Virus record (IMG/VR): IMGVR_UViG_3300045999_011735
Coordinates: 32,001-96,000 of that record
Reading direction: 5' to 3' (one strand)
Length of the DNA stretch: 64,000 nt
Source of the DNA: a virus
Below the pieces are notes generated by a model. That model searched no databases and was not told the origin of the DNA. It worked only from the letters and a program-made list of their open reading frames with translations. A program made the position numbers and the translations under genes. Shown piece by piece: positions 2,735 to 59,006 of this stretch (position 1 is the stretch's first letter; each line of letters begins with the position of its first letter).

Positions 2735-3085
2735 TTATTTATCATATTTAACCACAAAAGTCATATCAGTATTTTGTGATAGAGGAATTGGTTGTGCCAA
2801 TTTAGCTACAGCCAATAAATCGTTTTGTTCATTATATAAACCAACTGTTGTAACATAAGGTTCAAAATAGGATGCAGTAACAAAATATTTTACTTCAGGA
2901 ATAGGAGAAGTTAATGATTGACTAAAAAATCCACTTCCACTAAATAAATTATCCTGTAATAAAGTAGGGTTGTATGACAGATTAAATTCATTATCCTTTA
3001 CATGACAAATTACGTTTTGCTCATATATAACCATTTCATTTTGAAATGATAGATTAAAACTTGGAGCTAAAGCAACTGAAGGCAT
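2735..3085 (-). CDS. Baseplate/tail structural protein, C-terminal-module paralog of 9777..10799
   Basis: VTTVGLYNEQNDLLAVAKL matches ITTVGLYNDQNELLAVAKL of the 340-aa ORF. Confidence 0.7.
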   Translation of the reverse strand: MPSVALAPSFNLSFQNEMVIYEQNVICHVKDNEFNLSYNPTLLQDNLFSGSGFFSQSLTSPIPEVKYFVTASYFEPYVTTVGLYNEQNDLLAVAKLAQPIPLSQNTDMTFVVKYDK

Positions 3086-3104
3086 AATTTAAATAATTTA
3101 TATT

Positions 3105-3845
3105 TTAAGAACATTGAGGAAAAGCATAAGCTGAAACCCAATTATAGTTTGAATCAAATTGCCACAACCCACCATTTATAAAAACATAAAGAGGGCCATC
3201 ATTACTTAATGGAAGATTTCCACCTGAGTCTGTATAGAGAGGACAAAAAACTCCAAAATTTCCAAGGTTACAAAGAGACCAAAGACTTTGAGGGTTATAA
3301 GCAGCATTGTTACATGCATCAAATGCTGTTGCTCCCCAACCACATCCTATAAATTCAGTAAAAACTAATGGTGGTGGTGATGAAGGAGTTATAGATGGTG
3401 TTCTAGTAATTGTTGGTGTTGGTGTCGGTGATTGAGAGGCACCTATAGTAGGTGATGGAGTAACAGAAAGTGTAACACTTGGAGTAACTGTTCTAGTTGG
3501 AGTAACTGTTGGTGTTAATGTTCTAGAAGGAGTTACAGTTGGAGTAACTGTGGCGCTAATACTGCGTGTTGGAGTAATTGAAGGAGTAATAGTAGGAGTT
3601 GGTGTAACTGAAAGTGATGGGGAAGGAAATGGTAATATTTCTTCATTTGCACAACCAAACGCTTCATTAGTAACTACAATAGATGATGAAGGAACACCAA
3701 GAGGAACATTTACAAGATATCCTGCCTCTAATTCAGGTCTAGTTACGTTAGAGGCATACAAGGTTTGTCCACTGCTACCTGAAAGATAGACATTAAATGG
3801 TCCTGGTGAATTTCCTTGATCATAATATATTACGTAAGTAGGCAT
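3105..3845 (-). CDS. Thr-Pro repeat virion/fibre protein with Cys-rich C-terminal domain
   Basis: Central TP[ST][IV]T repeats; C-terminal GCGWG...DAC...LYTD domain. Confidence 0.65.
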   Translation of the reverse strand: MPTYVIYYDQGNSPGPFNVYLSGSSGQTLYASNVTRPELEAGYLVNVPLGVPSSSIVVTNEAFGCANEEILPFPSPSLSVTPTPTITPSITPTRSISATVTPTVTPSRTLTPTVTPTRTVTPSVTLSVTPSPTIGASQSPTPTPTITRTPSITPSSPPPLVFTEFIGCGWGATAFDACNNAAYNPQSLWSLCNLGNFGVFCPLYTDSGGNLPLSNDGPLYVFINGGLWQFDSNYNWVSAYAFPQCS

Positions 3846-3899
3846 ATTGTTTTTATATCAATGTAATGAAAAATATTGATATCTCCACATAAATATATT

Positions 3900-6800
3900 T
3901 TAACATGGACCTATATCTAAATACACATAATAATCATAAGTACCTGATACAATAGTAATACTACAATAAGCAGATGCTGTAAATAAGTCACATTGTGAAT
4001 TACTACAACCACCAGTACCACTAACACCTGCTGCTACTTGTGCTCCACTGGCATTAGCAGCTAATTCTATAGTATCACCAACAGATACACCAAATGTTCC
4101 ACTATTAGTTACTGATTGAAATACTTCAATATTAGAATTTTTATAAATGGCCATATCTCCAGAAGTAGAATCTGTATTTGTAGTTTGCCAAATAACTTGA
4201 TAAACTGGTGTAGGAGTAATAGTTGGTGTTGGTGTTGGAGTAGCGGTTATACTAGGAGTAGGTGTTATTGATGGAGTAGCGGTTATTGATGGTGTAGGTG
4301 TTATACTTGGTGTTTGAGTTCTAGTTGGTGTAGGTGTAATAGTTGGTGTAGGTGTTACACTAGGACAAGCTCCTAATGATGTAACTATACCTCCAGTTCC
4401 AATATAACATTGACCACCAACTGAGAAATGTTTTAAAACTGTTGTTACTGTACAAGTAGCATTACTATATAATTGTTTACCTGCTGCTAGTACACCACAA
4501 GTATATACAGTTTGAGGAGAACTAGTTTGTGCACAAGCTTCAGCACAATCATTTCCCTCATAAACTACAGTTGCTGTACAATTACAAGGTGTAACAGTAG
4601 GAGTTGGTGTTAATGTTCTAGTAGGTGTAATACTAGAAGTTGGTGTAATTGTTCTAGTAGGAGTGATACTTGGAGTAGCAGTAATACTAGGTGTAGCTGT
4701 TCTAGTAGGGGTAATTGTAACAGTTGGTGTAATAGAAGCTGTTGGTGTAATACTAGGTGTTCTACTAAATGTTGGTGTTGGAGTAATAGATGGTGTTGAT
4801 GTTATTGATGGTGTTATAGTTCTAGTAGGAGTTACAGTAGGAGTAGCAGTAACAGACGGTGTAGGTGTTATACTAGGTGTAGCAGTTATACTAGGTGTAA
4901 TTGTTCGTGTTGGAGTAATACTAGGTGTAGCTGTTATAGATGGTGTAGCAGTTATACTAGGTGTAGCTGTAATTGATGGAGTTATTGTTCTAGTTGGTGT
5001 TATACTAGGAGTAGCTGTAATACTAGGTGTTGGAGTGATAGAAGGTGTTACAGTTACACTTGGTGTTACAGTTTGAGAAGGTGTAATTGTACTAGTAGGT
5101 GTAATTGATGGTGTTACTGTTACACTTGGAGTAACAGTTACAGATGGAGTTACAGTACTAGAAGGTGTAATTGTTCTAGTTGGTGTAATTGATGGAGTTA
5201 CAGTTACACTAGGTGTTATAGTAACAGTAGGAGTTACAGTTTGTGAAGGTGTAATTGTTGTAGTTGGAGTTATACTAGGTGTTATAGTAACAGATGGCGT
5301 TACTGTACTTGTAGGAGTAATACTAGGAGTAGCAGTTACTGTTACAGTTGGTGTTATACTAGGAGTAATTGTAACTGATGGTGTAATTGTACTTGTAGGA
5401 GTAATGCTCGGTGTTACAGTTATTGTAACTGATGGTGTAATAGAAGGTGTTATAGTAATACTAGGTGTAATAGTAGAAGTCGGAGTAATTGATGGAGTTA
5501 CTGTAACAGTAGGAGTAATTGATGATGTTGGGGTTATAGTAACTGTAGGGGTAATACTTGGAGTAACAGTCACACTAGGTGTAACTGTACTAGTTGGTGT
5601 TATACTTGGGGTTACAGTTACAGTTGGAGTAACCGTCACACTTGGAGTTACAGTTACAGATGGAGTAATAGTACTAGTTGGTGTAACACTTGGTGTTATA
5701 GTAACAGTTGGAGTTATACTAGATGTAGGTGTAATAGTTGGTGTTGGTGTTTCACTAGGTGTTACAGTTACACTTGGAGTAATAGTTTGAGAGGGAGTTA
5801 CAGTAATAGTTGGGGTTATAGAAGGTGTTACTGTTACTGTTGGTGTTACAGATGCTGTAGGTGTAACTGTTAAAGTAGGAGTTATACTTGGAGTCTCAGT
5901 TATACTAGGAGTTATTGTAACAGTAGGGGTTACAGTTACACTAGGAGTAACAGTAATGGTTGGAGTTGTAGATACAACAGGTGTTGCTGTTACACTAGGA
6001 GTGGGTGTTATAGTTGGAGTAATAGATGGAGTAACTGTTGATGTTGGTGTTTCACTAGGTGTTACAGTTACAGTTACAGTAGGAGTTACTGTTTCACTAG
6101 GAGTAACAGTCACTGTAGGTGTAATAGTAACACTAGGTGTTATTGAAGGGGTTTCTGTTATAGAAGGTGTAATAGTAACAGATGGGGTAACAGTCACACT
6201 TGGAGTAATAGTAGAAGTTGGAGTAATACTTGGAGTAACAGTTACACTAGGAGTTACAGTTTCCGAAGGAGTAATTGTTACACTAGGTGTTACAGTAAAA
6301 GTTGGTGTAACTGAAGGTGTTATAGTTACAGTAGGTGTAATAGTTTGAGTTGGAGTAACCGTCACACTTGGAGTAACAGTTACAGTTACAGACGGTGTTA
6401 CTGTTTCACTTGGAGTTACAGTAACAGTTGGTGTTACAGTTTCACTCGGAGTAACAGTCACACTTGGAGTTACTGTAGCTGTAGGAGTTACAGTAGGTGT
6501 AATTGTTTCAGAAGGAGTAATTGTAACAGTAGGAGTTATTGTTTGTGAAGGTGTAATTGTTGTTGTTGGTGTAATTGAAGGTGTGATTGTAACTGTAGGA
6601 GTTACAGTTTCACTTGGTGTAATTGTAACAGTAGGAGTAATATTAGGTGTTTCTGTTATAGAAGGTGTAATTGTTACAGTTGGTGTTACAGTAGGAGTAA
6701 TTGTCTCACTTGGAGTAATAGTAACTGTTGGTGTTACTGTTTGAGATGGAGTAATAGTAGTAGTAGGAGTAACACTAGGTGTTACAGTTTCACTAGGTGT

Positions 6801-8738
6801 TACAGTTACAGTAGCTGTAGGTGTTATAGAAGGTGTTACTGTTACAGACGGAGTAACAGTAGGAGTTACAGTCTCACTAGGTGTTATAGTAACTGAAGGA
6901 GTAATTGTTTGAGTTGGAGTGACAGTTGTACTTGGAGTTACAGTTACAGTAACACTTGGTGTTATAGTTGATGTAGGTGTTACAGTAGAAGTAGGAGTAA
7001 TAGTTGGTGTTTCAGTAATAGTAGGTGTAATAGTAACTGTTGGTGTTACTGTTTCACTCGGAGTTATCGTAACTGAAGGGGTAATTGTAGAAGTTGGCGT
7101 TACAGTTGGTGTAACTGTTTCACTTGGAGTAATCGTAACACTAGGAGTTATTGTTGGGGTTGTACTTGGAGTAGTAGTAACTGTAGGAGTTACAGTTACA
7201 GAAGCCTCTATAGTTGCTGATGGTGTAAAAGAAGGTGTTCTACTTACTGTATGGCTTGGTGTTACAGTGACAGTAGGAGTAACAGTTGGTGTTTCAGTTG
7301 GTGTAAGTGAAGGTGTTGATGTTATTGATGGAGTAACAGTTGCTGTAGGGGTTTCACTTGGTGTAACAGATACAGTAGGAGTAATAGTTTCACTTGGAGT
7401 GATTGTAACAGTAGGGGTTAATGTTGATGTTGGTGTTACTGTAGGAGTAATACTTTCACTCGGAGTTATTGTTACTGATGGAGTGATAGTTGTAGTAGGA
7501 GTAACAGATGGTGTTTCTGATGGTGTAACAGTAGGTGTTGGAGTTTCAGTTGCAGTAGGTGTAATCGTTGCAGTAGGTGTAATTGAAGGTGTTTCAGTTA
7601 TACTAGGAGTGATTGTAACTGTTGGTGTTACAGTTTCACTTGGAGTTATTGTAGGAGTAACAGTTATACTTGGGGTAATAGTAGATGTCGGTGTTATAGA
7701 TGGTGTTACAGTAACAGTAGGTGTTATAGTACTTGTAGGAGTAATACTAGGTGTTTCTGTAATGCTAGGTGTAATTGTTACAGTAGGTGTAATTGTTTCA
7801 CTCGGAGTGATAGTTGGTGTTGGTGTTAATGTTTGAGTTGGAGTTATAGTAGGGGTTACTGTTGCACTTGGTGTTACAGTTACTGTTGGAGTTATAGTTT
7901 GAGTTGGTGTTACAGTAGCAGTAGGTGTAATAGTAGGTGTTATAGTTTCACTCGGTGTGATTGTTACTGTTGGCGTTATAGTAACTGATGGTGTAACAGT
8001 TGCTGTTGGAGTTATTGTTGTTGCTACAGTACTTGTAGGAGTAACTGTAGGAGTAATAGTTTCACTTGGAGTTATAGTAACTGATGGTGTAATAGTTTGA
8101 GTTGGAGTAATACTTGGAGTAACAGTTACACTTGGAGTTACTGTTTGAGATGGTGTAACAGTTACACTTGGAGTTACAGTTTCACTAGGTGTAATTGTAA
8201 CTGTAGGAGTTATAGTTTCACTAGGAGTAATAGTTCTAGTTGGTGTAATAGTTGGTGTTGTACTAGGAGTTACAGTTACTGTTGGAGTTATAGTAGAGGT
8301 AACAGTAGCTGTAGGTGTTATAGACGGTGTTATTGTTTTAGTAGGAGTTATAGTAACCGATGGAGTAACAGTTGCGGTAGGAGTAATAGTTGAAGCTACA
8401 GTTGCTGTAGGAGTAACTGAAAGGGTTTTTGTTATGGTAGGAGTTATAGAAGGAGTTCTAGTGATACTTGGAGTAATACTAGGTGTTGCAGTTACTGTTA
8501 CAGTAGGTGTAGGTGTAAAAGTTGGAGGAGGAGTAAATAATATAAGTGTATTACTTTGAAAAAAAGGATCAACCGCTTGTATATAAGCAGCATATGTTGC
8601 TGAAGGAACAGGAGCATAAGAAGCAGATCCACTTGAGTTATTAGCATATATAATGACATCCTGCAAACCAGTTTCATAATACTGGTCTACATAAAGCACT
8701 GAAGCTGTAACATCAAATGAAGCTGAAGTGTATCCCAT
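3900..8738 (-). CDS. Giant mucin-like Thr-Pro repeat protein (1612 aa), probable virion appendage
   Basis: Uninterrupted 4.8-kb ORF; about 1300 aa of TP[ST][IV]T[IV] units; two Cys-containing terminal domains; inside the structural block; no signal peptide. Confidence 0.75.
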   Translation of the reverse strand: MGYTSASFDVTASVLYVDQYYETGLQDVIIYANNSSGSASYAPVPSATYAAYIQAVDPFFQSNTLILFTPPPTFTPTPTVTVTATPSITPSITRTPSITPTITKTLSVTPTATVASTITPTATVTPSVTITPTKTITPSITPTATVTSTITPTVTVTPSTTPTITPTRTITPSETITPTVTITPSETVTPSVTVTPSQTVTPSVTVTPSITPTQTITPSVTITPSETITPTVTPTSTVATTITPTATVTPSVTITPTVTITPSETITPTITPTATVTPTQTITPTVTVTPSATVTPTITPTQTLTPTPTITPSETITPTVTITPSITETPSITPTSTITPTVTVTPSITPTSTITPSITVTPTITPSETVTPTVTITPSITETPSITPTATITPTATETPTPTVTPSETPSVTPTTTITPSVTITPSESITPTVTPTSTLTPTVTITPSETITPTVSVTPSETPTATVTPSITSTPSLTPTETPTVTPTVTVTPSHTVSRTPSFTPSATIEASVTVTPTVTTTPSTTPTITPSVTITPSETVTPTVTPTSTITPSVTITPSETVTPTVTITPTITETPTITPTSTVTPTSTITPSVTVTVTPSTTVTPTQTITPSVTITPSETVTPTVTPSVTVTPSITPTATVTVTPSETVTPSVTPTTTITPSQTVTPTVTITPSETITPTVTPTVTITPSITETPNITPTVTITPSETVTPTVTITPSITPTTTITPSQTITPTVTITPSETITPTVTPTATVTPSVTVTPSETVTPTVTVTPSETVTPSVTVTVTPSVTVTPTQTITPTVTITPSVTPTFTVTPSVTITPSETVTPSVTVTPSITPTSTITPSVTVTPSVTITPSITETPSITPSVTITPTVTVTPSETVTPTVTVTVTPSETPTSTVTPSITPTITPTPSVTATPVVSTTPTITVTPSVTVTPTVTITPSITETPSITPTLTVTPTASVTPTVTVTPSITPTITVTPSQTITPSVTVTPSETPTPTITPTSSITPTVTITPSVTPTSTITPSVTVTPSVTVTPTVTVTPSITPTSTVTPSVTVTPSITPTVTITPTSSITPTVTVTPSITPTSTITPSITITPSITPSVTITVTPSITPTSTITPSVTITPSITPTVTVTATPSITPTSTVTPSVTITPSITPTTTITPSQTVTPTVTITPSVTVTPSITPTRTITPSSTVTPSVTVTPSVTVTPSITPTSTITPSQTVTPSVTVTPSITPTPSITATPSITPTRTITPSITATPSITATPSITATPSITPTRTITPSITATPSITPTPSVTATPTVTPTRTITPSITSTPSITPTPTFSRTPSITPTASITPTVTITPTRTATPSITATPSITPTRTITPTSSITPTRTLTPTPTVTPCNCTATVVYEGNDCAEACAQTSSPQTVYTCGVLAAGKQLYSNATCTVTTVLKHFSVGGQCYIGTGGIVTSLGACPSVTPTPTITPTPTRTQTPSITPTPSITATPSITPTPSITATPTPTPTITPTPVYQVIWQTTNTDSTSGDMAIYKNSNIEVFQSVTNSGTFGVSVGDTIELAANASGAQVAAGVSGTGGCSNSQCDLFTASAYCSITIVSGTYDYYVYLDIGPC
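4211..8530. repeat. Degenerate coding tandem repeat (Thr-Pro units)
   Basis: + strand recurring GG(T/A)GT(T/A)A(C/T)(A/T)GT-type 12-24 bp units with third positions varied; interrupted by a Cys domain at about 4365-4587. Confidence 0.9.
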
Positions 8739-8753
8739 TTTCTTTTTTCTTTT

Positions 8754-9755
8754 TTATGGTGCTAATTGAGTAAATTCTACAACCAATTCACCACTTCCAC
8801 TTACTAAAGGAGAAGCTAATATAATTAATGATGGTTCTCCTATAGACATTTCAAATTCACAATTTGGATCTAATACATTAACTCTTATCTTTCCTAAGTT
8901 ACTTGTTAATGGATTACAATATGATCCTGTAACTTGGAATGTATAGAAGGTTTCATAAACACCTACTCCAAGCCCACTAAAGGACATTGTTACTGTATTA
9001 TTAGAACCTGTGCTAAAGAATTGTATATCTCCTCCTGATAGTTGTATTGATTGATTTATAAGGATATTTCCATTTAAAACATCATTGGCTAATGGAGATA
9101 TTGAAATACTAACAGGGTTTCCATAATCACTTCTTGTAATAGTAACAACATCATCGTAAGCAATAGGAGTTAATGGGAATATTCCTTGATAATCTTGATT
9201 TGTAAGTACTACAATACCTTCTGGGTAGAAAATATTTCCTGAATGGGTTGTGTAATTATCATATATATTTCCTTTACCATCATCTGTAAGGTTATATGTA
9301 GATGAAGTCATTTGGAAACTGTATGGTAATATTCTTTCACCATAAATTTTAGGGGATATAGAAAGCACTTTAATAGATTCTCCAACACCAGTTGGAAAAT
9401 TGCTAATAAATGCTGGGTCGTTGTTGAAATCAAAATATGAGCGAGATGCTCTTAATCCTGTAGGATTTCCACTATAATAAATTGAGGAAGCAAGAGAAGC
9501 AGTTGATAGATATAAATTATCTCCGTATTCATGATAAAACATTTGGTTTATCATGTCATACATTAATCTATCATATTGTCCATTTGTAATAGGTTCTCCA
9601 CCTGGGTCGAAAGTACCTGTTATATAAGTACCATTGTATATGTCGACATAAGGATCATCTACTGGTAAAGGACAATAGTTAAAATTCCATTGCTTGTTAG
9701 CTATAACAGGTACTGTTATAACATCTGAAGACTTTAACTTTTTGAATGATCCCAT
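8754..9755 (-). CDS. Baseplate/tail structural protein (N-terminal-module paralog of 9777..10799) with Ig/cadherin-like extension
   Basis: YGERILPYSF...LTDDGKGN...GNIFYPEGIVVLT parallels YKEHIQPGSM...LTDDS...GYLFPDNDIIIL; PIAYDD...ISPLAND resembles an Ig-like repeat start. Confidence 0.6.
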   Translation of the reverse strand: MGSFKKLKSSDVITVPVIANKQWNFNYCPLPVDDPYVDIYNGTYITGTFDPGGEPITNGQYDRLMYDMINQMFYHEYGDNLYLSTASLASSIYYSGNPTGLRASRSYFDFNNDPAFISNFPTGVGESIKVLSISPKIYGERILPYSFQMTSSTYNLTDDGKGNIYDNYTTHSGNIFYPEGIVVLTNQDYQGIFPLTPIAYDDVVTITRSDYGNPVSISISPLANDVLNGNILINQSIQLSGGDIQFFSTGSNNTVTMSFSGLGVGVYETFYTFQVTGSYCNPLTSNLGKIRVNVLDPNCEFEMSIGEPSLIILASPLVSGSGELVVEFTQLAP

Positions 9756-9776
9756 TTAATAACATTATTATCTAGA

Positions 9777-10799
9777 TTAGTAGTCTAATTTAACTTTAAT
9801 TAAGGCTTCCTTAGTAAAATCTTTAACTAATGGTCTACTTAATTTAGCAACCGCTAATAATTCATTTTGGTCGTTATATAAACCAACTGTTGTAATGAAT
9901 GTTTGTGGATTGTTAATTAACGTGGTGTAAATTAAATTACCATTACTATCTATGATTGAAGGGTTTGTTGTATAATTAAAGTCTTGGTTTTTAACTCTTG
10001 TAAAGAAATAATGTGATGATACATCTTCAGCTGATTGTAGAGCAAAATAAGCACTAGATGACATTGCTGTATAAAATTGAAACTGAATGTTACTATCAGT
10101 TCCAGGAGCAGCTACAGCTGGATTAAAGTTGATACCACCATTTGCTTGAGACTTAGATAATGCTGTTGGATTTAAAATGATAATATCATTATCTGGGAAC
10201 AAATATCCATAAATAGAAGCTGAAGCAGCAGCTGTATATTGTGTGCCACCACTACCACTAATTAAATTATAATATAATAAACCATTAGTTGTATAGTTAG
10301 TAGTAGAAGTAATTTGACTATCATCAGTTAAAGATATTTCGTAAGTAGTATTCTTTAATTTTAATGTCATAGAACCAGGTTGGATATGTTCCTTATATCT
10401 ATTTCTAGCTACGTTAATAACATATATACCATTTGGATTATCATTACCAAATTCAAAACTTCCACTTTCTGTCCCCAATAACAATGTTCTATATTGGCCA
10501 TAAACTACCCTAGTAGGTGTTATAGCAGAACCATCTGGTAAATTTGTAGTTACTGATGGGCTTATGTAATTGGAACCACTTCCGTATTTGTTGCCGTATT
10601 GTACGGCCATTTGTATAGAGGAAGAAGTAGAAGTTAAAGCACCTGGGTATTCACTATATACATTTAAATAGAATGAACTGGTGATTACACTAGAAGTAAA
10701 GAAAGTAGATAATACATTAGTATCACCACTCCACATTGGACGTACTACTGTTTCCGTACTTACTACTGAATCTTCTGGGTTATATCTTACGAATGACAT
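9777..10799 (-). CDS. Baseplate/tail structural protein
   Basis: S/T/N-rich beta protein; FNYTTNPS and TTVGLYN...LLAVAKL; structural context. Confidence 0.7.
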   Translation of the reverse strand: MSFVRYNPEDSVVSTETVVRPMWSGDTNVLSTFFTSSVITSSFYLNVYSEYPGALTSTSSSIQMAVQYGNKYGSGSNYISPSVTTNLPDGSAITPTRVVYGQYRTLLLGTESGSFEFGNDNPNGIYVINVARNRYKEHIQPGSMTLKLKNTTYEISLTDDSQITSTTNYTTNGLLYYNLISGSGGTQYTAAASASIYGYLFPDNDIIILNPTALSKSQANGGINFNPAVAAPGTDSNIQFQFYTAMSSSAYFALQSAEDVSSHYFFTRVKNQDFNYTTNPSIIDSNGNLIYTTLINNPQTFITTVGLYNDQNELLAVAKLSRPLVKDFTKEALIKVKLDY

Positions 10800-10810
10800 A
10801 TATTAATTTA

Positions 10811-11473
10811 TTAAGAATTTGTTTTTGTTATAGTTAACGGAATAGTAATTCTAGCACCACTATCTCTACCTAATACTGTAATTGTAGTTGATATTTGAGT
10901 TAAACTAGAACCAAACAATGTATTAATTGTAGTACCAGTTAATGTGAATGAAGTACCAATTAAAGTTTGGCTTACAGATGAACCAAGTGTTTGAGTAACA
11001 CCAGTTGCTGTAACTTCAGCACCTGCAACACCAGTTGAAGAGAATGTAGATAAGAATCTAACATCAGCTACTGTTATGGCATATCCATTGGCTTCAAAAG
11101 TACTTGTAGCACCTAAGTAGTTCAATGTTTGTGGAGTAATTGTAATTGTTGAACCTTGTCTTAAATTAATTGCATTGTATCCTACACTAATTACTGGTAA
11201 CTTAGCAGTACCTCTTGGTAATGTTACTAGCTTAAAGATCATGATTTGTGTATCATCTGGGAAAGCTTCAATTAAAGGCATTGCCTCAATAGCTTGACCA
11301 TAAAATGCAGACCCTGATGGATGTTGAGGGTTATACAAAGTATAGTCAACTTCATCGTCTGCTAATGAAAACTGTGTGATTTGGAACGACCCGTCGTTGC
11401 GAGCCATTAATTCCCTACCTTTAGCTGTTAAAACTGCATCAATTGTTACAGTATTGTTATTTAAAATAGCCAT
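10811..11473 (-). CDS. Virion structural protein (tail-collar-like N-terminus)
   Basis: DAVLTAKGRELMA...ITQFSLADDEVDY, resembling the LT..G...+A tail-fibre/collar start. Confidence 0.65.
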   Translation of the reverse strand: MAILNNNTVTIDAVLTAKGRELMARNDGSFQITQFSLADDEVDYTLYNPQHPSGSAFYGQAIEAMPLIEAFPDDTQIMIFKLVTLPRGTAKLPVISVGYNAINLRQGSTITITPQTLNYLGATSTFEANGYAITVADVRFLSTFSSTGVAGAEVTATGVTQTLGSSVSQTLIGTSFTLTGTTINTLFGSSLTQISTTITVLGRDSGARITIPLTITKTNS

Positions 11474-11521
11474 TCTTTTAATGTATTTTGATTATAAATA
11501 TTTAATTCTTGTGGATCTAGA

Positions 11522-14500: not shown

Positions 14501-16117
14501 TAAATCTTTTCTTGGAACGTTGTTTAAGAAACTACTTGATGGTGAATAATCACCATTAAAGTCAACACTACCACTATATCCACCCACTTGGTAATCCAAC
14601 ACAGTTTGATCACCTTGCGAGTTATATAATTTCATTCCAAATGATTGTAACCAATCATATACTAAATCTTGAGAAATACCTCTATTAAGATTATTGTTAT
14701 TATCCCAAAGGTCTGTTAATTTATCAATATAGATCCAAACATTATCAAAATATTGACCTATCATATTGACAAATGTCAAATATGGGAGATAATTAGAAGG
14801 ATCGTCTGTAATATAAGACGGAATTGATCCTAATAAAATATCTTTATTATTAATATCATAAGCAACTGCTACTTCAGAAGCACTAAAAAACCAATTCTGT
14901 GCTGTTGATGATGCTGATGGGTATAATGTGTATGGTTGTGTAGAATTAGTTTTAGGATAAGGAGCAATATTGTATTCAAAGAATGATCCTGTTTCTAAAG
15001 TATATTCTACAATAGAAGATGTTAATGAACTTGAAGTATAATATAAGTAATACTCAAACCCATCAAACTTAGAAATTATTTCATTTATACTTGAACTAGC
15101 TCTAGTTACGGAAGAAACTAATGATGGATTACTAGCTGTTAAAGGAGAATTATTGTTAATTTCTGCTTGATAAGAGGTAATTTCACCTATTTTATACATG
15201 AAATTATACACCCTATTTTCAGCAGAACTGTAATGTATAAAGTCGTTTAAAACACTAAAATCTATATTAATATTAGTATTCTGGTTGTTAATTACATTTA
15301 AAACAACTTGATAATAAGATCCTGTAAGTGAAGAAACAAGTTGATTGTAATTATTATAAGGTGTAGGAACTACATTTTTTAATTCTAAATCAATATCAAA
15401 GTTAGGTCCTTTTAATCTAGGTTGAGGTGGAGGAGTAATTAATTTGTCTAAATTAAGATCAAATATATAAGGATTAACTATTTCCTCTACAACCCAAAAT
15501 GTATCTTTTAAAGCAATATTGTTAGGAAGTGGATTAGCTAATTTAAATAATATACTAGCATTTCCATCACTATCAACATCACTTACTGCATTAACGGCTA
15601 TTGATTGGTTATTACTTCCAAAGTTTAATATTACATAGTAATAGTAAGGAACAGTAGCTTGTCTTTGAGTAAAACTTGAAACTATTGAAAGTAATTGATC
15701 ATTCGTTAAGATGGTCGAATTTACTCTTACTTCAGTTCTATCGGTAGAAATCTGCTGGATAAATAGCTGGTTACTAAAAGGTTCACCTGATATTTTTCTA
15801 AAGAAATTATATCTAGTGGTTACTTCACCTGATTCATATCCTAAATTTCTAATATCTTGAATAGGGTCTATTTCAAGAACAGGAAGTAAACTTTGAGAAT
15901 ACCCAACATTAGAAGGTAACTTATATGATTGATAATTATAGTTTGTATTTAATACACTACCTCCAAGATCAAAAACATAAAACTCAATATAATCGTTAGA
16001 AGCACCAAACGTTTCTTGTTGTACACTAGGAAGTAATAATCTTTCATCCTGTAGTGGATAACGATTAATTATGTCTGTATTAAGAACTTCGCCTACTATA
16101 GTAATATTAGATGCCAT
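11522..16117 (-). CDS. Large baseplate wedge-like structural protein (1531 aa)
   Basis: MIGQYFD and YKRLYHNLPYLFKAKG...LITLFG...IKEYGG (wedge/tail protein I-like motif). Confidence 0.65.
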   Translation of the reverse strand: MASNITIVGEVLNTDIINRYPLQDERLLLPSVQQETFGASNDYIEFYVFDLGGSVLNTNYNYQSYKLPSNVGYSQSLLPVLEIDPIQDIRNLGYESGEVTTRYNFFRKISGEPFSNQLFIQQISTDRTEVRVNSTILTNDQLLSIVSSFTQRQATVPYYYYVILNFGSNNQSIAVNAVSDVDSDGNASILFKLANPLPNNIALKDTFWVVEEIVNPYIFDLNLDKLITPPPQPRLKGPNFDIDLELKNVVPTPYNNYNQLVSSLTGSYYQVVLNVINNQNTNINIDFSVLNDFIHYSSAENRVYNFMYKIGEITSYQAEINNNSPLTASNPSLVSSVTRASSSINEIISKFDGFEYYLYYTSSSLTSSIVEYTLETGSFFEYNIAPYPKTNSTQPYTLYPSASSTAQNWFFSASEVAVAYDINNKDILLGSIPSYITDDPSNYLPYLTFVNMIGQYFDNVWIYIDKLTDLWDNNNNLNRGISQDLVYDWLQSFGMKLYNSQGDQTVLDYQVGGYSGSVDFNGDYSPSSSFLNNVPRKDLTLDSYKRLYHNLPYLFKAKGAHGGLEGLITLFGITGSILPIKEYGGMTDSQELKGYTTDKINIGSNIITGSVLSPIKRLETSPTSSRAVKSQDLHFIDVSFSPETQIDAAVSASIVAINPNWILDDYIGDPRDLQLNTYPSLSYEREYWFGQTFNEPFDYGGFIRLIQFFDNSLFKMVKDFTPARGNTWTGVSIKSPVLERPKVAQYQPLFFRTNEFSATPESASLEPVYDPYYYYLAGDKADYYNGNIPGSSLDTYLVFQENNRNPFLVDNTIGYIPPGFISGNTDFVLNYDSPRPENFFLNSDFNVLQNNVDVSLTSEYRKKLIPILSTDALGRNFTSYSISGSVELQDSYLSLTAYTRPRYSGVQLYGRQFNTWSVGDNSYGQSPVINYNVKKLGLFTEVVENRYLPYKTNATLKYLVNESGSLTELNLRNRNWEEVQNTFETGDFLNVSLFDPKKFGNQIQTNGNKLIAESGYSYFPIFYAYGSESAPANWTASAVFNSVVGSSSNIVNRYFTVFASSGSLVPVGQLGSPYVSSSYSAAGTVNMQEVWNLFNITGSNTSFGGYFFTGSGPGGTSFNSTSSYYQIPAEGIYQFTYDFNIQTTASIINPANTFTASMELWLSSSTGTYTLLDQNKQTVAYQGGYYNAVLENLPNGYNQYSFTPSQDVFDIILLNGYDIRQVNVFGQVVNTISITGGDKTFRAYDVTGRIYVPSFGDDQFVYLGIIWVELPTIPTMGNIFNITYYTNIDSIPVTGNANQSFLFRRSIDINTTGSVNPGDKVEFRFFIDSGGVSQAYLNPYGSIKVVPTNGNLIANNIEVCVDQTQNAFYLNNNLSNFYGPSLFFNPLDSQVSASYGSLYEDYGDIFYPFSLEPNDKIVIQITNANGPILEYTVKSVVTVAGPNNTSFIYFVTYEDIDGYFGNLCSQYYKILFIKRIIDETSVILDFPKPEGKTSYGYIIPQNISPAVMANIDTINRNVNQQLVDVGVGVTT

Positions 16118-16460
16118 TATTTGCTAGTTGTTGTGTTAAATTTGCATTTTGGGTTTCTGCGTCTAATAATTGTTGTCTTAAATCAGTTATTTCTTGTAGT
16201 AAAGCTTGAACATCAACATCCTCAGCAAAAGTAACACCTAAATATTCTGCTTCTCTGTTTAATATATAAGTGTGTGAATTGATTTCTCCTTCTCTAGGTA
16301 TCTCAAAAAATAACTCATCATATAAAGCAAAAAATTCATCTATTGTTATTTCAGGAACCGTTGGTTCTGTAACACCTAATTCTCTAAATTGTGTGTCTAT
16401 AACTTTAGAGAATCTATTCTTGTCGTATATTGCACGTCTAACAGGAATATTTTCTGCCAT
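16107..16460 (-). CDS. Hypothetical structural-block protein with coiled-coil C-terminus
   Basis: Overlaps both neighbours; EIPREGEINSH motif. Confidence 0.6.
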   Translation of the reverse strand: MAENIPVRRAIYDKNRFSKVIDTQFRELGVTEPTVPEITIDEFFALYDELFFEIPREGEINSHTYILNREAEYLGVTFAEDVDVQALLQEITDLRQQLLDAETQNANLTQQLANNGI

Positions 16461-17548
16461 TATTTATTTATTTTAAATGTATATTGATTATCAAATACCA
16501 TTGTAGATCCATTAGAAAAAGTAGATTTAATTAATATCTTATAAAGTCTTTCAGGTTGAAGACCATTCATATATAAATTAAAATAGTTTCCGTTTGGATC
16601 ACAACTTACTTTAGTGTAGTTAACATCATAGTCTATAACATAATCTCCTGTATCTACGTCTTGAAGAGCATAATAAGAGGCAGATGGTAAAGCACTATTT
16701 AAAGTATAAACAGATACTGTTGTAAATTGTCTTGCAGGGTATATAGGTCTAGCGTTTACTCTAAACTGATATTTGGTATCTCTATCATATTGGCCTATAT
16801 TATTCCCTACAGTAACTGTGGTATTATTATTAGATAATACAGCTAAAGAACCAGTATTGTATACACTATCATTCCACCTAATTTCAAGTTGTGGAGGATA
16901 AATAGTATGGGTATCTTTAGAAAAGAATTTTAATGAATAAGATGATGAAGGATTAAATTCATATCCTGATTCCATTCTAACTAGGAAACCATCATTTTTA
17001 ACATTTAGATTATTAAAATTACCTACAATATCAGTAACTTCAATATCTGTATCTTTTGTACTATTAATAGCAAAAGATTGAGAATCTTCAAACAATGTGT
17101 ACCATGTTGCTCCTCCAGGGCTATCGTTTTGAAACGATGCCGTAGTATCAGCAGCAAAACTAGAAGTACGCCAATTATTAGTACTATTTCTTTGTTTCCA
17201 TGTACAATCTGTTGTTACCGATGGATCATATAAAAATCTACCTGTACCTACTTCCCAAGATTGAGAAACAGGATTAACAAATAATGTGTAATTATCTGGC
17301 AATTCAGTACCATCAGCAACGAATAATTTTAAAAATGCTTTGTAGTTCCCGGGACCACCAGCTTTAACAATAGTTTCTTGAATTTCTGAAAGAGGGAATT
17401 GAACTAGAATTCGTGATACCTGCGCATCGTTATTAGAAGATGATGGTTCATTTTGAATTTCTAATATTTGATCAAGCCCCGTATTCATTAGGGGATATGC
17501 GGAGTAAATAGTAGTGTCCTTTTCAGGATATATTTTATAGATGGCCAT
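16460..17548 (-). CDS. Virion structural protein (DNRLRE/carbohydrate-binding-like N-terminus)
   Basis: KDTTIYS...SRILVQF...SWEVGTG...PPQLEIRW. Confidence 0.55.
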   Translation of the reverse strand: MAIYKIYPEKDTTIYSAYPLMNTGLDQILEIQNEPSSSNNDAQVSRILVQFPLSEIQETIVKAGGPGNYKAFLKLFVADGTELPDNYTLFVNPVSQSWEVGTGRFLYDPSVTTDCTWKQRNSTNNWRTSSFAADTTASFQNDSPGGATWYTLFEDSQSFAINSTKDTDIEVTDIVGNFNNLNVKNDGFLVRMESGYEFNPSSSYSLKFFSKDTHTIYPPQLEIRWNDSVYNTGSLAVLSNNNTTVTVGNNIGQYDRDTKYQFRVNARPIYPARQFTTVSVYTLNSALPSASYYALQDVDTGDYVIDYDVNYTKVSCDPNGNYFNLYMNGLQPERLYKILIKSTFSNGSTMVFDNQYTFKINK

Positions 17549-17580
17549 CTATTAATTTATTTACAATAAATATAGAATTA

Positions 17581-19395
17581 TTAGAAAGTTACAACTCTAC
17601 CTTGGATATCCAAGTCAGGGAATCTAACCTCAAATATAGATGGATCTAACGAAGGATACAAAATATCATTTCTAATAGCACCCTGTACGTCATAACTGTA
17701 TGGAGAATAATTACCTCCTGAAAGATTTGTAAAGCTAAACTTTACAACTGACTGTACACCTTTAATTTGTAATAAAAGACCAGCAACATCTGATATAATA
17801 ACTGGCTGGTTAATTTGCCATTTATCTATATCAAAGTAGTCTTGTAGTGCTAAAATACAATCAGATAATATTTGTTGGTTACTTAACCCTGGAATAACTG
17901 TTATATCAAAGTTAATACCTATATTAATGTAAAAGGCATCTTTGATAGTAATAGCATCTGTAACCATTCTAAATGGTTGTAAGTATTCCTTTAAATTAGT
18001 TTTAAGATCAAGTGTAGCGTTTTCTAATTGTTTATTATCATTATAAGCTAAAATATACATTGATAAAGCAAGCGGGTTATTATCAATTAATGGGTCATTA
18101 CCTGCTTGAACCGATAAAGCGGATGCTTGTTCTACGTATACTTTAGCAATAGTACCAAATTGGGATGGCATACTTAAAGCACGAGTCATATAATCGTCTT
18201 TAGTTACTGATCTCAATTGGGCTGAAAATGCATTTAATGTATTCAAACGAATTTCTTCTACTGTATCTCCTCCTCTACCACCACTTGAAGGTATTGGATT
18301 AGTACAAACTAATGTAGTTAAAGAAGTATTTGTATTAGCAGGGTTTGTAGCTGTTATACCTGCTGTTGATAATATTTGTATAATATCTCCTGCTGGTAAA
18401 TTAGACTCAACACCTCCTCCTACTGTGTATTGAACATATAAACTAATATTAGCAGGTACAGTACCATACTGTTTAGTATAGAACACAGCAGCCTGATTGT
18501 AATTATTTACTAGGTCAGATGTATCTGCTGGTGGTATTAATCCAAGTTGAATTGTATTTGGGTTTGGAATAATAACATCATCAGGATCATTTACATACAT
18601 TCCTGAACCAAACTGTAATTCTACAATATCGTCTGTTTTAATTCTTGTAACATAACGATTTGGTGTTTGTAATAAACTTAATAAATAAGGAACTTTATCA
18701 ATATTAGCTCCCGTATTAACAGTTTTATTAATGATATTAGATTGAGCTAAATAAGGTACTTCATACCATACACTACTATCACTTCCTGTTACTTGTAATA
18801 CCTGTAAAAAGTTAGGTTCATTTAATTCAACTGAAGTGAACTTAACAGGTGCTCCAAAAGTAAAATTTGTACTTTTAATTTCAGCAGAAATTGCTCTTGT
18901 AGATTTTTTAAATAGATAATTACTTGCATTAAACAAACTAATTTCTACAGATCCAGTATCATTAAAATCTACTCTATCAACTGTTAAAAATTTAATACCT
19001 GTAGATACAGAAGCAAGTTGTGTATTTTCTGGGATTGTTAATGCATAGCTTAAATCAGGTTGACCTGCTACAATAGGTACTCTTTGGTAAAAGTCAATTG
19101 TAGTAACAGCAGCATAAGATGTTTTAGGGCGGTATCCTAATGAATAGGCCATGTTTAACAAATTCTGTTTTTCAACAGCCGTTAAAACAAAGTTTTCTTG
19201 AATTTGGGTATCAGTATAAAACGATAATACATCACCAACATAAGCAGCCATTTCAATAAACATCGTACCAGGGGATGCTTCTGAAAAGTCTGTATAAGTG
19301 TTTGGGAAATAATTTTTTGCAAACTCAATAAGGGAAGCCTTAAATTGAGTAAAATTCTTATTTAAATATGATATGTTTTTATTATTGTTTGCCAT
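17581..19395 (-). CDS. Baseplate wedge protein (T4 gp6 / baseplate J-like)
   Basis: YTDFSEASPGTMFIEMAAYVGDVLSFY, LGYRP, GGRGGDTVEEIR, QLRSVTKDDY. Confidence 0.9.
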   Translation of the reverse strand: MANNNKNISYLNKNFTQFKASLIEFAKNYFPNTYTDFSEASPGTMFIEMAAYVGDVLSFYTDTQIQENFVLTAVEKQNLLNMAYSLGYRPKTSYAAVTTIDFYQRVPIVAGQPDLSYALTIPENTQLASVSTGIKFLTVDRVDFNDTGSVEISLFNASNYLFKKSTRAISAEIKSTNFTFGAPVKFTSVELNEPNFLQVLQVTGSDSSVWYEVPYLAQSNIINKTVNTGANIDKVPYLLSLLQTPNRYVTRIKTDDIVELQFGSGMYVNDPDDVIIPNPNTIQLGLIPPADTSDLVNNYNQAAVFYTKQYGTVPANISLYVQYTVGGGVESNLPAGDIIQILSTAGITATNPANTNTSLTTLVCTNPIPSSGGRGGDTVEEIRLNTLNAFSAQLRSVTKDDYMTRALSMPSQFGTIAKVYVEQASALSVQAGNDPLIDNNPLALSMYILAYNDNKQLENATLDLKTNLKEYLQPFRMVTDAITIKDAFYINIGINFDITVIPGLSNQQILSDCILALQDYFDIDKWQINQPVIISDVAGLLLQIKGVQSVVKFSFTNLSGGNYSPYSYDVQGAIRNDILYPSLDPSIFEVRFPDLDIQGRVVTF

Positions 19396-19811
19396 TACTC
19401 AAAATTAACTGTTACTGTGTCTGTTTGTCCTGAAATTAGAATTTGATATATTATTTTAATAACTAAAGAATTACTAACATTATTTGGTTCTTGTGTAAAT
19501 TCTATATTATTAATTGATATTTCAGGAATATACACTTGAACACTGTCTCTAATACTATCTTCAATATCGCTAAAAGAGGCTTCAGTCATTGGGTTAAATA
19601 ACTGAGATCTTAAAGTTGTTCCAAAATTAGGATTGTCAATCCTTTCACCTTGGGAGGTTAATATTAGATTAATTAAATTATATTTCAATTGGTCTTTAGT
19701 TGAAAAAGTACTATAAAATACACCAGGAGCGTTAAACGGAAGTCTAACGCCTATTGCTGTGTTTCGCTGTAGATCTCTAGGATCAACTCTAGTACTTCTT
19801 ACGTAAGCCAT
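19395..19811 (-). CDS. Baseplate protein gp25-like
   Basis: NLINLILTSQGER...PNFGTTLRSQLF. Confidence 0.9.
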   Translation of the reverse strand: MAYVRSTRVDPRDLQRNTAIGVRLPFNAPGVFYSTFSTKDQLKYNLINLILTSQGERIDNPNFGTTLRSQLFNPMTEASFSDIEDSIRDSVQVYIPEISINNIEFTQEPNNVSNSLVIKIIYQILISGQTDTVTVNFE

Positions 19812-20137
19812 TATTGAACATTTCTAAAATTACTAACTTCACCTGGATTTTGTCTCATTTCTGCAGCAACTTGAGCCAGCATGTTTTGGTAAACATTTTG
19901 TTTTTGAGCTGGTGTAGTTGGTTTGGCTTGTGGCGCTCCTTGCATTCCCATTTGATCCATCAAACTTTGACGGAAAGCAGCAGGGTTAACATTTTTAGTA
20001 GTTAAATTAACTGTAGGCCATTCCTCAGTAGCAGCTAATGATTCCTGGATTTTTTGTTTGCCGATATTGGCTAGTTCTTCTTTCAAAACTTCCCTAACGG
20101 CTTCTTTAATTAGATTTTTTAAGTCTTGTGTTTTCAT
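19811..20137 (-). CDS. Hypothetical protein (LKNLIKEAVREVL N-terminus)
   Basis: Start preceded by ATATTTAT motif; N-terminal helix of a type common in large-phage head proteins. Confidence 0.6.
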   Translation of the reverse strand: MKTQDLKNLIKEAVREVLKEELANIGKQKIQESLAATEEWPTVNLTTKNVNPAAFRQSLMDQMGMQGAPQAKPTTPAQKQNVYQNMLAQVAAEMRQNPGEVSNFRNVQ

Positions 20138-20148
20138 ATCAATAAATA

Positions 20149-21456
20149 TTAAGCTTCGAGATTTCGTTCGTCGATTTGGAGTTTTAAATCTTCAATTAAA
20201 ACATCAGAATTTAATGTAAATGATGGTTGTGTACGTAATACGATAAATCCACTTCTATCTAAAGCAACAGCATATCTACGTTTATTTCCATCTACTACAA
20301 ATTTAGGATCATTTTCTTCATATATTGCAAAAGTAAATCCTTTATATGAAACATTAGGTACTGCACCTAATTGACCACCACCTTCTAACTGTGCTACTAA
20401 TGCATTAATTTCATTTGGTGATAAGTCATTGTCAATTGCTTTATCAATAATATCGCTAATTGGTAATAATCTTGATTTTTGGTATTGTACTTCAATTACT
20501 AATCCATTTAATGCTTCTCTAGTAATTCCTAACATTACTGTTATAGAATCTAATGTCATTATAGCATCTGTTATTTTTTTAACAGTACCCGGAGTTGCTG
20601 GGGTAGGGATTAATAATAGTATTCTAACAACTATAGAAATAATTCTTAATATTCTTTCTAAAGTTCTAATTGTATTTCTAATTTTAGTAATTTGACGTTC
20701 AGCTTTATTTAATTCAACTAAAGCAGCATTTCGTACTACCCTTGCTCTTAATACATCCTGTTTAGTTTGAATATTTAAAATTTGTTCGTTTACTCTATCA
20801 ACTAAATCAGTTAATTGCTGTACTATTTTAGCTAATCGCTGAACTTCTCTATTCAATAATTTAGATATGATAAATAGAGCTGCGGCTTTAGCTAATGATC
20901 TAATTGCTGAACTATTTTTCTTTGCAATTGCTCTAGCATCATTTATTTTAATTTTTTTAACATCTTGTTTAACAATAGTATCACTTTTCCTTTCAGATGC
21001 TTCTACTGTTTGTTTTAATTCTCTTTTCCTAAATATATTTCCTACTCTTCTTGTAAGATCATCTACTTTAGTTTGAACAGCTTCTAAAAATTTAGTAAGT
21101 TGTTGAACTTCTTTTTCTGCTTTTTTCTTTTTTTCCTCTGCAACTTTTAACTTTTTATCGGCTTCATTTGATAAATTTTGTCTTATTTGTTCTGAATTTG
21201 CTCCTGGTTGGTTAGCTTGTTGGTTGAATGTTGCTGGGTCTGGAGCAAGAGTAGCAGCAGCAGCTAAAGCAGCATCAGCAGATAATTGTTTGTTACTTAA
21301 AGTACCAGCATATGATTTAGCTTGTATAGCAGCTGCTTTAGCTTGTTCATATAGTGCTTTAGCATTTTCATACCTACGTCTTCCCTCTTCGTATAGTTTA
21401 CGATTTTCCTCTATCTCTTTTTGAGTATTTTCTATCCTTTCATCAATAGTAGCCAT
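20149..21456 (-). CDS. Long coiled-coil protein, structural block
   Basis: Heptad-rich with hydrophobic helical hairpin; ATG overlaps the upstream stop. Confidence 0.6.
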   Translation of the reverse strand: MATIDERIENTQKEIEENRKLYEEGRRRYENAKALYEQAKAAAIQAKSYAGTLSNKQLSADAALAAAATLAPDPATFNQQANQPGANSEQIRQNLSNEADKKLKVAEEKKKKAEKEVQQLTKFLEAVQTKVDDLTRRVGNIFRKRELKQTVEASERKSDTIVKQDVKKIKINDARAIAKKNSSAIRSLAKAAALFIISKLLNREVQRLAKIVQQLTDLVDRVNEQILNIQTKQDVLRARVVRNAALVELNKAERQITKIRNTIRTLERILRIISIVVRILLLIPTPATPGTVKKITDAIMTLDSITVMLGITREALNGLVIEVQYQKSRLLPISDIIDKAIDNDLSPNEINALVAQLEGGGQLGAVPNVSYKGFTFAIYEENDPKFVVDGNKRRYAVALDRSGFIVLRTQPSFTLNSDVLIEDLKLQIDERNLEA

Positions 21457-22664
21457 TATAAGGTCTTTACAGTTTTAGAAAGTAAATTATCTTTATTTAA
21501 CTTTTTAGTATTATTACTAAGATATGTTTGTAATTTTTCGGCAGCTAAAGCTATATCCATAATAGTTATACCTTCAGGAGTAGCCTTAGCATCAATTATA
21601 TCAGTGCTAAAATCACTTAATGCCTTATATAATCCAGATAAAAGTTGTCTTAAATTATTTCCTAAAACAACAGGTTGAAGTTTATTAAATGAAGTATCTA
21701 TTGATGGTCCTAAAGCAATAATATTATCTTGTATAGTTATTCCTGTTTTATCACTTTGCATATAAACAGGACCTTGAGAATATAATTCAACACCTGTTCT
21801 ACCAAATACTAATACTTCATCTGATTTAGAAGAAATAATAGTTCTATCAGCATTTATAATTGCTTGAGGATTTGAATAGGAAGATATACCAATAGGTTCA
21901 GTAATATTACTTAAACGTACGTTACCTATATTTAAAGGAACAATTTGTTGAGATGTTAAGTAAAATGAAGATCCATCTTGGTTAATATTTTCAACGTATA
22001 AATCAGAACCTGAAGGTTTAAATCCATGTTCATTTGAAAGAATAAGAATAGGATTACTATTTAATTCTCCTGGGTTGGTAGACCATGGTGTTAAATCTTT
22101 ATCTCCTGATCTATTTGTACTTCCAAAACGAAGTGAATTTCCAAATCGACCTTCTAAAACATAGTCACCTTCAAATGTTTGTACTCCTCTAAAATCAGAA
22201 TTTTGTGTAAATGAATTATATAATAAATCTTTATTTTCATTAATAAATAATCCGTTAAATTGAGGGCTATTCCATGCATTAATTACACTTAAGTAATAAG
22301 TTTCTTCTGTTTTATTTGTAATAGGAGAAGGTGCTGATGGTAAATCCATCAACAATACTATTTCACCTGGTAATGGGAAATACTTTTGGTTTGGATATAA
22401 AGGTAAAGCAGTAGGTAACGTAGCAAGAGTAGCATCATTCAACTGATCCAAAGGAATTTCAGTTGATTCATCATATATTTGATACAATATAGTTCCTACA
22501 CCAGCCCAACCACCATTAGCATCCCATACTTTTTCAGGGACACTAGTTGGGCCTAATATAACAGCATAAACCTTTCCTGTCTTAAATTGAAAAGGAGGCA
22601 AAAAGTTATTATTACCAATAGAGGTAGTAATAAACGATAGACCTTCTCTTATTCTAGTACTCAT
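21456..22664 (-). CDS. Baseplate hub/spike (gp5/gpV-like) protein
   Basis: PLPGEIVLL, EGDYVLEGRFGNSLRFGST, IINADR, PVVLG. Confidence 0.6.
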   Translation of the reverse strand: MSTRIREGLSFITTSIGNNNFLPPFQFKTGKVYAVILGPTSVPEKVWDANGGWAGVGTILYQIYDESTEIPLDQLNDATLATLPTALPLYPNQKYFPLPGEIVLLMDLPSAPSPITNKTEETYYLSVINAWNSPQFNGLFINENKDLLYNSFTQNSDFRGVQTFEGDYVLEGRFGNSLRFGSTNRSGDKDLTPWSTNPGELNSNPILILSNEHGFKPSGSDLYVENINQDGSSFYLTSQQIVPLNIGNVRLSNITEPIGISSYSNPQAIINADRTIISSKSDEVLVFGRTGVELYSQGPVYMQSDKTGITIQDNIIALGPSIDTSFNKLQPVVLGNNLRQLLSGLYKALSDFSTDIIDAKATPEGITIMDIALAAEKLQTYLSNNTKKLNKDNLLSKTVKTL

Positions 22665-51250: not shown

Positions 51251-51253
51251 TTA

Positions 51254-51952: not shown

Positions 51953-51957
51953 GTTTT

Positions 51958-58373: not shown

Positions 58374-58376
58374 AAT

Positions 58377-59003: not shown

Positions 59004-59006
59004 AAC

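Follow-up and report, generated by a model that had tools for sequence, protein, structure and literature searches.

A serine-terminated tripeptide in excess in the outer tail proteins of a myovirus is a candidate tag for phage-encoded O-glycosylation

In a 64,000-nucleotide stretch of DNA from a freshwater phage (bases 32001-96000 of the 115-kb viral contig IMGVR_UViG_3300045999_011735, estimated to be 67% complete; hereafter the window), the short amino acid motif [ST]-[GAS]-S occurs in large excess, and this excess is confined to the outer tail proteins encoded in the window and to fibre proteins encoded elsewhere on the contig. Across the phages that we compared, the motif co-occurs with a conserved module of glycosyltransferases (GTs), made up of a GT4 enzyme, its divergent GT4 partner and a GT2 enzyme. 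We put at about even the chance that the motif, which is usually followed by a hydrophobic residue, serves as the recognition or acceptor tag of a soluble, cytoplasmic O-glycosylation system that the phage itself would encode. All genes of the window lie on the minus strand. Matches to PHROG families mark a myovirus baseplate with gp25-like (19395-19811) and gp6-like (17581-19395) genes, and the gp6-like gene is followed by genes for proteins of 362, 117, 1531, 220, 340, 333, 1612, 246 and 116 amino acids (aa), none of which has a family match; searches of PDB and Pfam with the fibre and outer proteins gave essentially no matches. The closest named relatives are Flavobacterium phage vB_FspM_immuto and Microcystis phage Mel-JY01 (immuto and Mel-JY01 from here on), and the baseplate module is syntenic in both.

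A sequence-only reading of the window had counted about 29 motif sites in the 1531-aa protein, where about 5 were to be expected, and had called for a comparison with composition-shuffled proteins. The count held up: we found 30 sites versus 5.5 expected (z 10.5), the expected number being here the mean of 1000 whole-protein shuffles, and every example peptide that had been quoted is present in the sequence. All 30 sites fall within residues 265-1392, so that the first 264 residues are free of the motif. An excess was also found in the 340-aa protein (9 versus 2.2), the 362-aa protein (6 versus 1.2), the 333-aa protein (5 versus 1.3) and the 116-aa protein (2 versus 0.26). Summed over these five outer proteins the shuffling test gives 52 sites versus 10.4, and the control motif [ST][GAS]T (the T-variant) occurs 8 times versus 8.3 expected. 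When shuffling of the 1531-aa protein was confined to windows of 10-50 aa, the expectation was 6.4-9.1 and the maximum in 2000 shuffles was 19, both short of the 30 sites observed, and local composition is therefore no explanation of the excess. Permuted versions of the motif in the same protein were not enriched in this way: [ST][GA]S occurs 20 times versus 2.9 expected, compared with 2 versus 1.9 for [ST][GA]T, 1 versus 1.2 for S[GA]T and 6 versus 4.8 for [GA][ST][ST]. The motif is thus order-specific and requires Ser at position 3. On the strength of the whole-protein shuffles, the window shuffles and the permuted-order controls we rejected an artefact of overall or local composition.

When all 8000 tripeptides were ranked by over-representation in the five enriched proteins taken together, no motif being specified in advance, TGS, TAS, SGS and SAS came first to fourth. 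Each position of the motif uses several codons in background proportions; the signal therefore lies at the level of the protein and is not a DNA word, and a DNA-level cause was rejected on these grounds. The residue directly after the motif (+3) is hydrophobic at 60% of sites, compared with 36% in the background. Pro is enriched immediately before the motif; the residues favoured at -1 are P, V, F and I, and D is not among them.

The sequence-only reading had also described the motif as recurring in the neighbouring genes. This proved correct for the 340-, 362-, 333- and 116-aa proteins and did not hold for others in the same span, the 1612-aa protein (11 versus 14.8) and the 246-, 220-, 604-aa gp6-like and 402-aa proteins showing no enrichment; tagged outer proteins and untagged inner ones thus both belong to the span. 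The 1531-, 362-, 333- and 340-aa proteins are mutually dissimilar by BLASTP, in line with the claim that non-homologous proteins carry the same motif, the exception being the 116-aa protein, which resembles the C-terminus of the 340-aa protein. As had been stated, the primase, the exonuclease and the 480-aa GT4 (GT4-480) contain no site at all. A wider contrast between structural and non-structural proteins was borne out for the outer proteins on the one side and for the non-virion open reading frames (ORFs) on the other, which are mildly depleted (7 versus 14.9, p about 0.02; T-variant 18 versus 15.4), but it does not extend to the head or the inner wedge, where the motif is not enriched. Head-region ORFs gave 11 versus 9.6, and the large ones among them, presumably including the (unassigned) capsid, sheath and tube genes, are likewise at expectation. 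Over the 57 ORFs of at least 100 aa other than the five enriched ones, the 1612-aa protein excluded, 10 sites were found versus 16.6 expected.

Outside the window, the motif is denser still in four fibre proteins of the same contig, with 39 versus 10.4, 14 versus 3.9, 29 versus 7.5 and 23 versus 6.6 sites, and the T-variant is at or below expectation in each of them. Within these fibres the motif is embedded in tandem structural repeats (VTGSLFGTASYA, ISGSVxV and a 9-residue FATNATSAS unit), and repeat similarity is common to the fibres among themselves. Several further features of the fibres were observed. The 615-aa fibre has an inserted C1q/TNF-like domain (residues about 108-269) that it has in common with small freshwater phages, and a tblastn search with a fibre protein matched only this C1q-like insert, the low-complexity filter masking the repeats. 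The 632-aa fibre contains a short collagen-like stretch, and the 349-aa fibre has a sub-threshold match to 'Chlorovirus glycoprotein repeat'.

We then turned to homologues of the tagged proteins. For the 1531-aa protein, 686 metagenomic homologues were found, and the excess is kept in 120 of the 120 listed (sum 3210 versus 752; T-variant 459 versus 520). At 13 of the 30 positions the site persists in at least 90% of 111 aligned homologues. In the N-terminal half of this alignment the motif residues have a conservation of 0.84, compared with 0.61 for other S, T, G and A residues. The third position of the motif is Ser in 71% of alignment cells and Thr in only 4%, whereas at position 1 S and T replace one another freely and at position 2 G, A and S do duty for one another. 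Families of the 362-, 340- and 333-aa proteins and of the inner proteins were drawn from 21 viral-contig loci, and their counts are not independent, the sequences within a family being mutually related. With that proviso, the 21 members of the 362-aa family contain 142 sites versus 33.7 (T-variant 13 versus 33.3; third position Ser 83, Thr 3) and the 340-aa family 170 versus 49 (third position Ser 122, Thr 9), both with the exchange pattern seen for the 1531-aa protein, and a weaker pattern is seen in the 333-aa family (81 versus 40.7; T-variant 57 versus 37.9; third position Ser 34, Thr 8). The gp6 family gave 43 versus 35.5, the gp25-like family 0 versus 4.1, and four small inner baseplate families together 0 versus about 12. 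These alignments indicate that the motif is conserved by selection and that its third Ser is under purifying selection. A separate observation concerns the family of the 402-aa inner tail protein (21456-22664, minus strand), in which 2 sites versus 14.5 expected over 12 homologues look like avoidance of the motif.

At larger distances, individual sites are lost. At 27-33% identity, the GITGSIL site of the 1531-aa protein has as its counterparts GIPSDIL (immuto), GIPKTLL (Mel-JY01) and GIPKSAL (LR756508, an uncultured phage of 484 kb). The fold of the protein does not, judging from these alignments, require the motif, because sites at this level of identity are replaced by unrelated residues. 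The 1531-aa homologues nevertheless keep a 2-3-fold excess through other positions in immuto (10 versus 4.5) and Mel-JY01 (18 versus 5.6), and SGS, TGS and TAS stand at or near the top of unbiased scans in immuto, Mel-JY01 and RM378. The last of these is a distant relative, in which six tail-module ORFs sum to 30 sites versus 8.3 (T-variant 7 versus 7.4); these ORFs share the context of the motif (LKTGSVNY, FTGSIVNN) without detectable similarity to the proteins of the phage studied here. No such signal and no comparable motif were found in gp5-12, wac and gp34-37 of T4, in Streptomyces phage BRock, in Pseudomonas phage PA5oct or in LR756508, and we rejected a general property of myovirus baseplates and fibres, given its absence from T4, BRock and PA5oct. 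An adaptation to a host phylum is unlikely, given hosts as diverse as Flavobacterium, Microcystis and Rhodothermus.

When the GT genes were set beside the motif, the two were found to co-occur across the nine compared phages: the module belongs to all five that have the motif, and the four that lack it have no GT2. The phage studied here, immuto and Mel-JY01 have the motif excess together with GT4-480, its 433-aa divergent partner (GT4-433) and a 208-aa GT2 (GT2-208); RM378 has the excess with GT4-480 and GT2-208, GT4-433 not being detected there. Neither the excess nor any of the three genes occurs in T4 and BRock, and PA5oct likewise has no excess, no GT4-480 and no GT2. LR756508, also without the excess, has only a 30%-identical GT4, no GT4-433 and no GT2 of any kind. 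Its baseplate proteins are homologous to those studied here (gp6 36% identity; 1531-aa homologue 27%, about as distant as that of Mel-JY01), and its homologue of the 1531-aa protein contains only 6 sites versus 2.4, with the T-variant at 5 versus 1.5. It is thus an informative negative, having homologous baseplate proteins with no motif excess and with neither GT4-433 nor a GT2. Three out of three relatives that are at least 90% complete possess GT2-208. Decoupling of motif and GTs within the clade was not found among the relatives retrieved through gp6 and the 1531-aa protein, which are close kin and mostly fragments.

That the motif has no function, and is a by-product of Ser/Gly-rich composition or of shared repeat ancestry, would accord with the Ser/Thr-rich make-up of the tagged proteins and the repeat similarity among the fibres, but we regard it as very improbable: window shuffles, permuted-order controls and the T-variant control do not reproduce the excess, the third Ser is under purifying selection, and unrelated protein families, as well as RM378, have the motif too.

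The GT genes of the window belong to a 13-kb island (49459-62658) that encodes two GT4 and three GT2 enzymes, RfbH-like and DegT enzymes, a nucleotidyltransferase, a PglD-like acetyltransferase, an RmlD-like reductase and four methyltransferases; it was not found to encode a flippase, a polymerase or a priming transferase. A syntenic glycan island is present in immuto, whose counterparts of the GT4 pair are 58% and 62% identical, and the GT2 genes other than GT2-208 vary across phages. Homologues of GT2-208 in the phage database come only from immuto, Mel-JY01, RM378 and two faecal fragments, and metagenomes contain thousands of homologues of the GT module. In RM378 the homologues of GT4-480 and GT2-208 adjoin one another, and the 425-aa ORF that follows the GT4-480 homologue has no detectable similarity to the 433-aa partner. 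In the same RM378 region (8212-15269), a DNA-polymerase-like gene and a ribonucleotide reductase are interspersed among the GT4-480 homologue, the 425-aa ORF next to it and two ORFs that resemble GT2-208; in the window, the GT4 pair comes after a PD-(D/E)XK nuclease. With early or replication genes as neighbours, the GT4 pair might conceivably act on DNA. A thymidylate-synthase-like hydroxymethylase, which would hint at DNA glycosylation, was not found in the contig, which is about 67% complete. One further ORF of the island (57744-58373, minus strand), of the DegT family and 209 aa long, matches only positions 24-98 of a 360-position model and adjoins a full-length 427-aa RfbH-like enzyme; it may be a truncated or split aminotransferase.

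Of the three conserved GTs, GT2-208 is the best candidate for a transferase acting directly on protein. When its family profile was compared with PDB, the GT domain of GmaR was the best match (E 1.8e-9, residues 4-202 aligned with 11-189, the DxD motif included), followed by the ThuS-like structure 7msk (8e-8), TarS and SunS (7e-5), and D92 and D94 of the D92-x-D94 motif as well as H171 and E172 are invariant in the family. The likeness to GmaR and SunS is one of resemblance, not of membership. For GT4-480, the AlphaFold2 (AF2) model has a predicted local distance difference test score (pLDDT) of 85, and Foldseek gives generic retaining GT4 folds (MshA, GlgM, sucrose-phosphate synthase); its best match by sequence in PDB is the putative GT B736L of chlorovirus NY-2A (E 2e-9).

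Several known systems offer points of comparison. The sole published precedent that we found is virion glycosylation in mycobacteriophages, whose virions are O-glycosylated by phage-encoded GTs (Freeman et al. 2023, cited in PMC12619734 and PMC12801897). Like the mycobacteriophages described there, the phage studied here has soluble GTs of its own, the presumed targets being its own virion proteins, modified in the cytoplasm, and GT genes are present in the motif-bearing phages as a system of this type would have it. According to the same citing papers, mycobacteriophage glycans sit on the C-termini of both capsid and tail-tube subunits, whereas the candidate sites here are internal and lie in the outer baseplate and the fibres. 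GmaR and SunS/ThuS are soluble enzymes that glycosylate protein or peptide directly, with no lipid carrier, and the N-terminal domain of GmaR, of about 180 residues, transfers GlcNAc to Listeria flagellin (PMC9638930). GT2-208 has in common with them a GT-A domain with a DxD motif and a significant profile similarity; it differs in being a bare GT-A domain without an extension, and the similarity is remote. To our knowledge, GmaR has one substrate, and we know of no defined sequon for it.

The adjoining GT4 pair, one member of which is divergent, recalls GtfA/GtfB, which glycosylate the serine-rich-repeat adhesins of Gram-positive bacteria, and the substrates of that pair, rich in S-[A/V/T]-S-type repeats, recall the SAS/TAS repeats of the fibres. 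A GtfA/GtfB-like pair is not supported, however: there is no DUF1975 (Pfam finds only Glycos_transf_1), GtfA (4pqg) is matched at E 0.98, and GtfA is not among the Foldseek matches listed for GT4-480. Likeness to the chloroviruses, whose capsids are glycosylated by cytoplasmic GTs of viral origin, lies in the B736L match, the sub-threshold repeat match in a fibre and the production of unusual, methylated sugars independently of the host. In chloroviruses the major capsid protein bears N-linked glycans; the [ST][GAS]S motif is unrelated to that system, and B736L is a putative GT only. Finally, the general O-glycosylation sequon of Bacteroidota is D-[ST]-[AILVMT]. The motif does not fit this sequon, the -1 position here favouring P, V, F and I and not D, and the motif occurring also in phages of a cyanobacterium and of Rhodothermus.

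The sugars added by the O-glycosylation system that we favour would sit on the baseplate periphery and on the tail fibres. GT2-208, as a GmaR/SunS-like GT2, would attach the initial sugar to the hydroxyl of a Ser or Thr; the acceptor may be position 1 of the motif, where S and T are interchangeable, with the invariant third Ser serving for recognition, or, just as possibly, the roles may be reversed. Extension of the glycan would then fall to the GT4 pair and to the variable GT2 and methyltransferase genes, using amino, deoxy and methylated sugars that the island makes, and the resulting sugar coat might protect the fibres or tune adsorption. The proposal of the sequence-only reading that the motif is the acceptor sequon of a phage GT survives to the extent that the motif appears as a selected, protein-level signal on outer virion proteins and tracks phage GT genes.

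A number of findings weigh against such a system. About 13 sites of the 1531-aa protein are conserved by position, some of them within helices or strands, and the fibre motif is part of tandem structural repeats. GT4-480, which the sequence-only reading had named, has the fold of a generic GT4, and its closest solved relatives act on small molecules or glycans. GT2-208 scores 32 bits on the NCBIfam SunS family, whose cut-off is 350, and does so over its N-terminal 100 residues only, and it falls well short of all other curated family thresholds too; with its 208 aa it amounts to the GT domain alone, without the substrate-binding TPR part of GmaR. Capsid and sheath are untagged here, which sets this phage apart from the glycosylated mycobacteriophages. 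The depletion in non-virion ORFs is weak and is not seen in Mel-JY01 or RM378. The correlation with GTs is confounded by phylogeny and comes down to roughly two independent presences and one co-loss, the GT module being core to the clade.

The main rival is that the motif stays unmodified and, as a peculiarity of the clade, has a part in the structure or assembly of outer tail proteins that are fibrous and beta-rich, contributing Ser/small-residue packing or hydrogen bonds in trimer interfaces or docking a fibre-assembly chaperone; the glycan island would then act on something else, for example on the Thr/Pro mucin-like protein, on DNA or on the host surface. The regular fibre repeats, the many positionally conserved sites and the hydrophobic +3 position, which would suit an amphipathic strand, all speak for it; the strict preference for Ser over Thr could reflect tight packing, and GT4-480 has no feature of a protein-directed GT. 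Structure prediction for the 1531-aa protein bears on this question within limits: an AF2 model of residues 241-1430 has a mean pLDDT of 52.6, at which a Foldseek search was uninformative, and only residues 285-460 and 1050-1350 are usable. Of 17 sites in these confident parts, about 12 are in loops or at helix or strand ends, 3 in strands and 2 in helices, as read by hand from the secondary-structure string. One structural role does not account for sites in such varied settings. A structural element is also hard to reconcile with the lack of the motif in the baseplates and fibres of T4, BRock and PA5oct, with homologous positions that tolerate unrelated residues, with LR756508, which keeps the proteins without the motif, and with the occurrence of the motif in families that have no detectable similarity to one another, those of RM378 included. 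We consider the structural explanation unlikely, if still a serious contender.

The motif might also be functional without being a glycan sequon, either as a site of another Ser modification (phosphorylation, acylation) or as an element that contacts host polysaccharide. Either a kinase-type site or a subsite for binding carbohydrate would be in keeping with the strict third Ser and the aromatic residues that frequently follow (TASY, SASF, TGSF), and the motif is limited to host-facing proteins. However, no kinase or acyltransferase was seen to track the motif, conserved sites occur also in the helical N-terminal half of the baseplate protein, far from the receptor-binding tip, and the co-distribution with the GT module would be left unexplained, which makes this explanation improbable in our view.

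Table 1. Positions of the motif-bearing proteins, the proteins compared with them and the glycan genes (positions are those of the window unless stated otherwise).
Feature	Position	Strand	Sites or evidence
1531-aa outer baseplate protein, main motif carrier	11522..16117	-	30 sites
362-aa protein directly downstream of gp6-like wedge	16460..17548	-	6 sites
340-aa outer tail protein	9777..10799	-	9 sites
333-aa outer tail protein, weaker excess	8754..9755	-	5 sites
116-aa protein, resembles C-terminus of 340-aa protein	2735..3085	-	2 sites
gp6-like and gp25-like inner baseplate wedge, not enriched	17581..19811	-	PHROG matches
1612-aa protein, 36% Thr, TITPT repeats, not enriched	3900..8738	-	11 versus 14.8
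208-aa GT2, GT-A fold	58377..59003	-	Pfam GT2
Neighbouring GT4 pair: 480-aa enzyme and 433-aa divergent partner	59918..62658	-	Pfam
Remaining glycan island genes	49459..58373	-	family matches
Four motif-dense fibre proteins	contig bases 548-2395, 2952-4001, 4053-5951, 112601-114238		outside window

Two regions next to the tagged genes deserve separate mention. The repeats of the 1612-aa protein are of the TITPT/SITPT type, its gene (3900-8738, minus strand) coincides with a GC-skew spike of 0.47, and both this protein and its 246-aa neighbour match phrog_15511. Between the primase and the tail genes lies a 142-aa ORF (2300-2728, minus strand) whose best match is a PHROG labelled 'NAD synthetase'; an ORF with the same label stands at the equivalent position in immuto. 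The 142-aa ORF also matches several homing-endonuclease families, and the label looks doubtful.

Taken more broadly, we tentatively propose, and hold this with somewhat less confidence than the tag itself, that a very large aquatic myovirus clade and distant kin such as RM378 write an [ST]-small-Ser sequon into their outer tail proteins, which a minimal GmaR-like GT2 would read and the GT4 pair extend. Three of the relatives (immuto, Mel-JY01 and RM378) are in culture. Were the motif structural instead, it would represent an undescribed lineage signature of tail proteins that helps to annotate proteins without a family. If the proposal is true, phages would possess a motif-coded protein O-glycosylation system that is independent of a lipid carrier, and site-directed glycosylation of proteins would gain a rare and portable tool in a soluble enzyme of 208 aa with a defined bacterial or phage sequon for O-glycosylation. 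Sugar-coated fibres would also alter views on the host recognition, protease resistance and decay of abundant freshwater phages.

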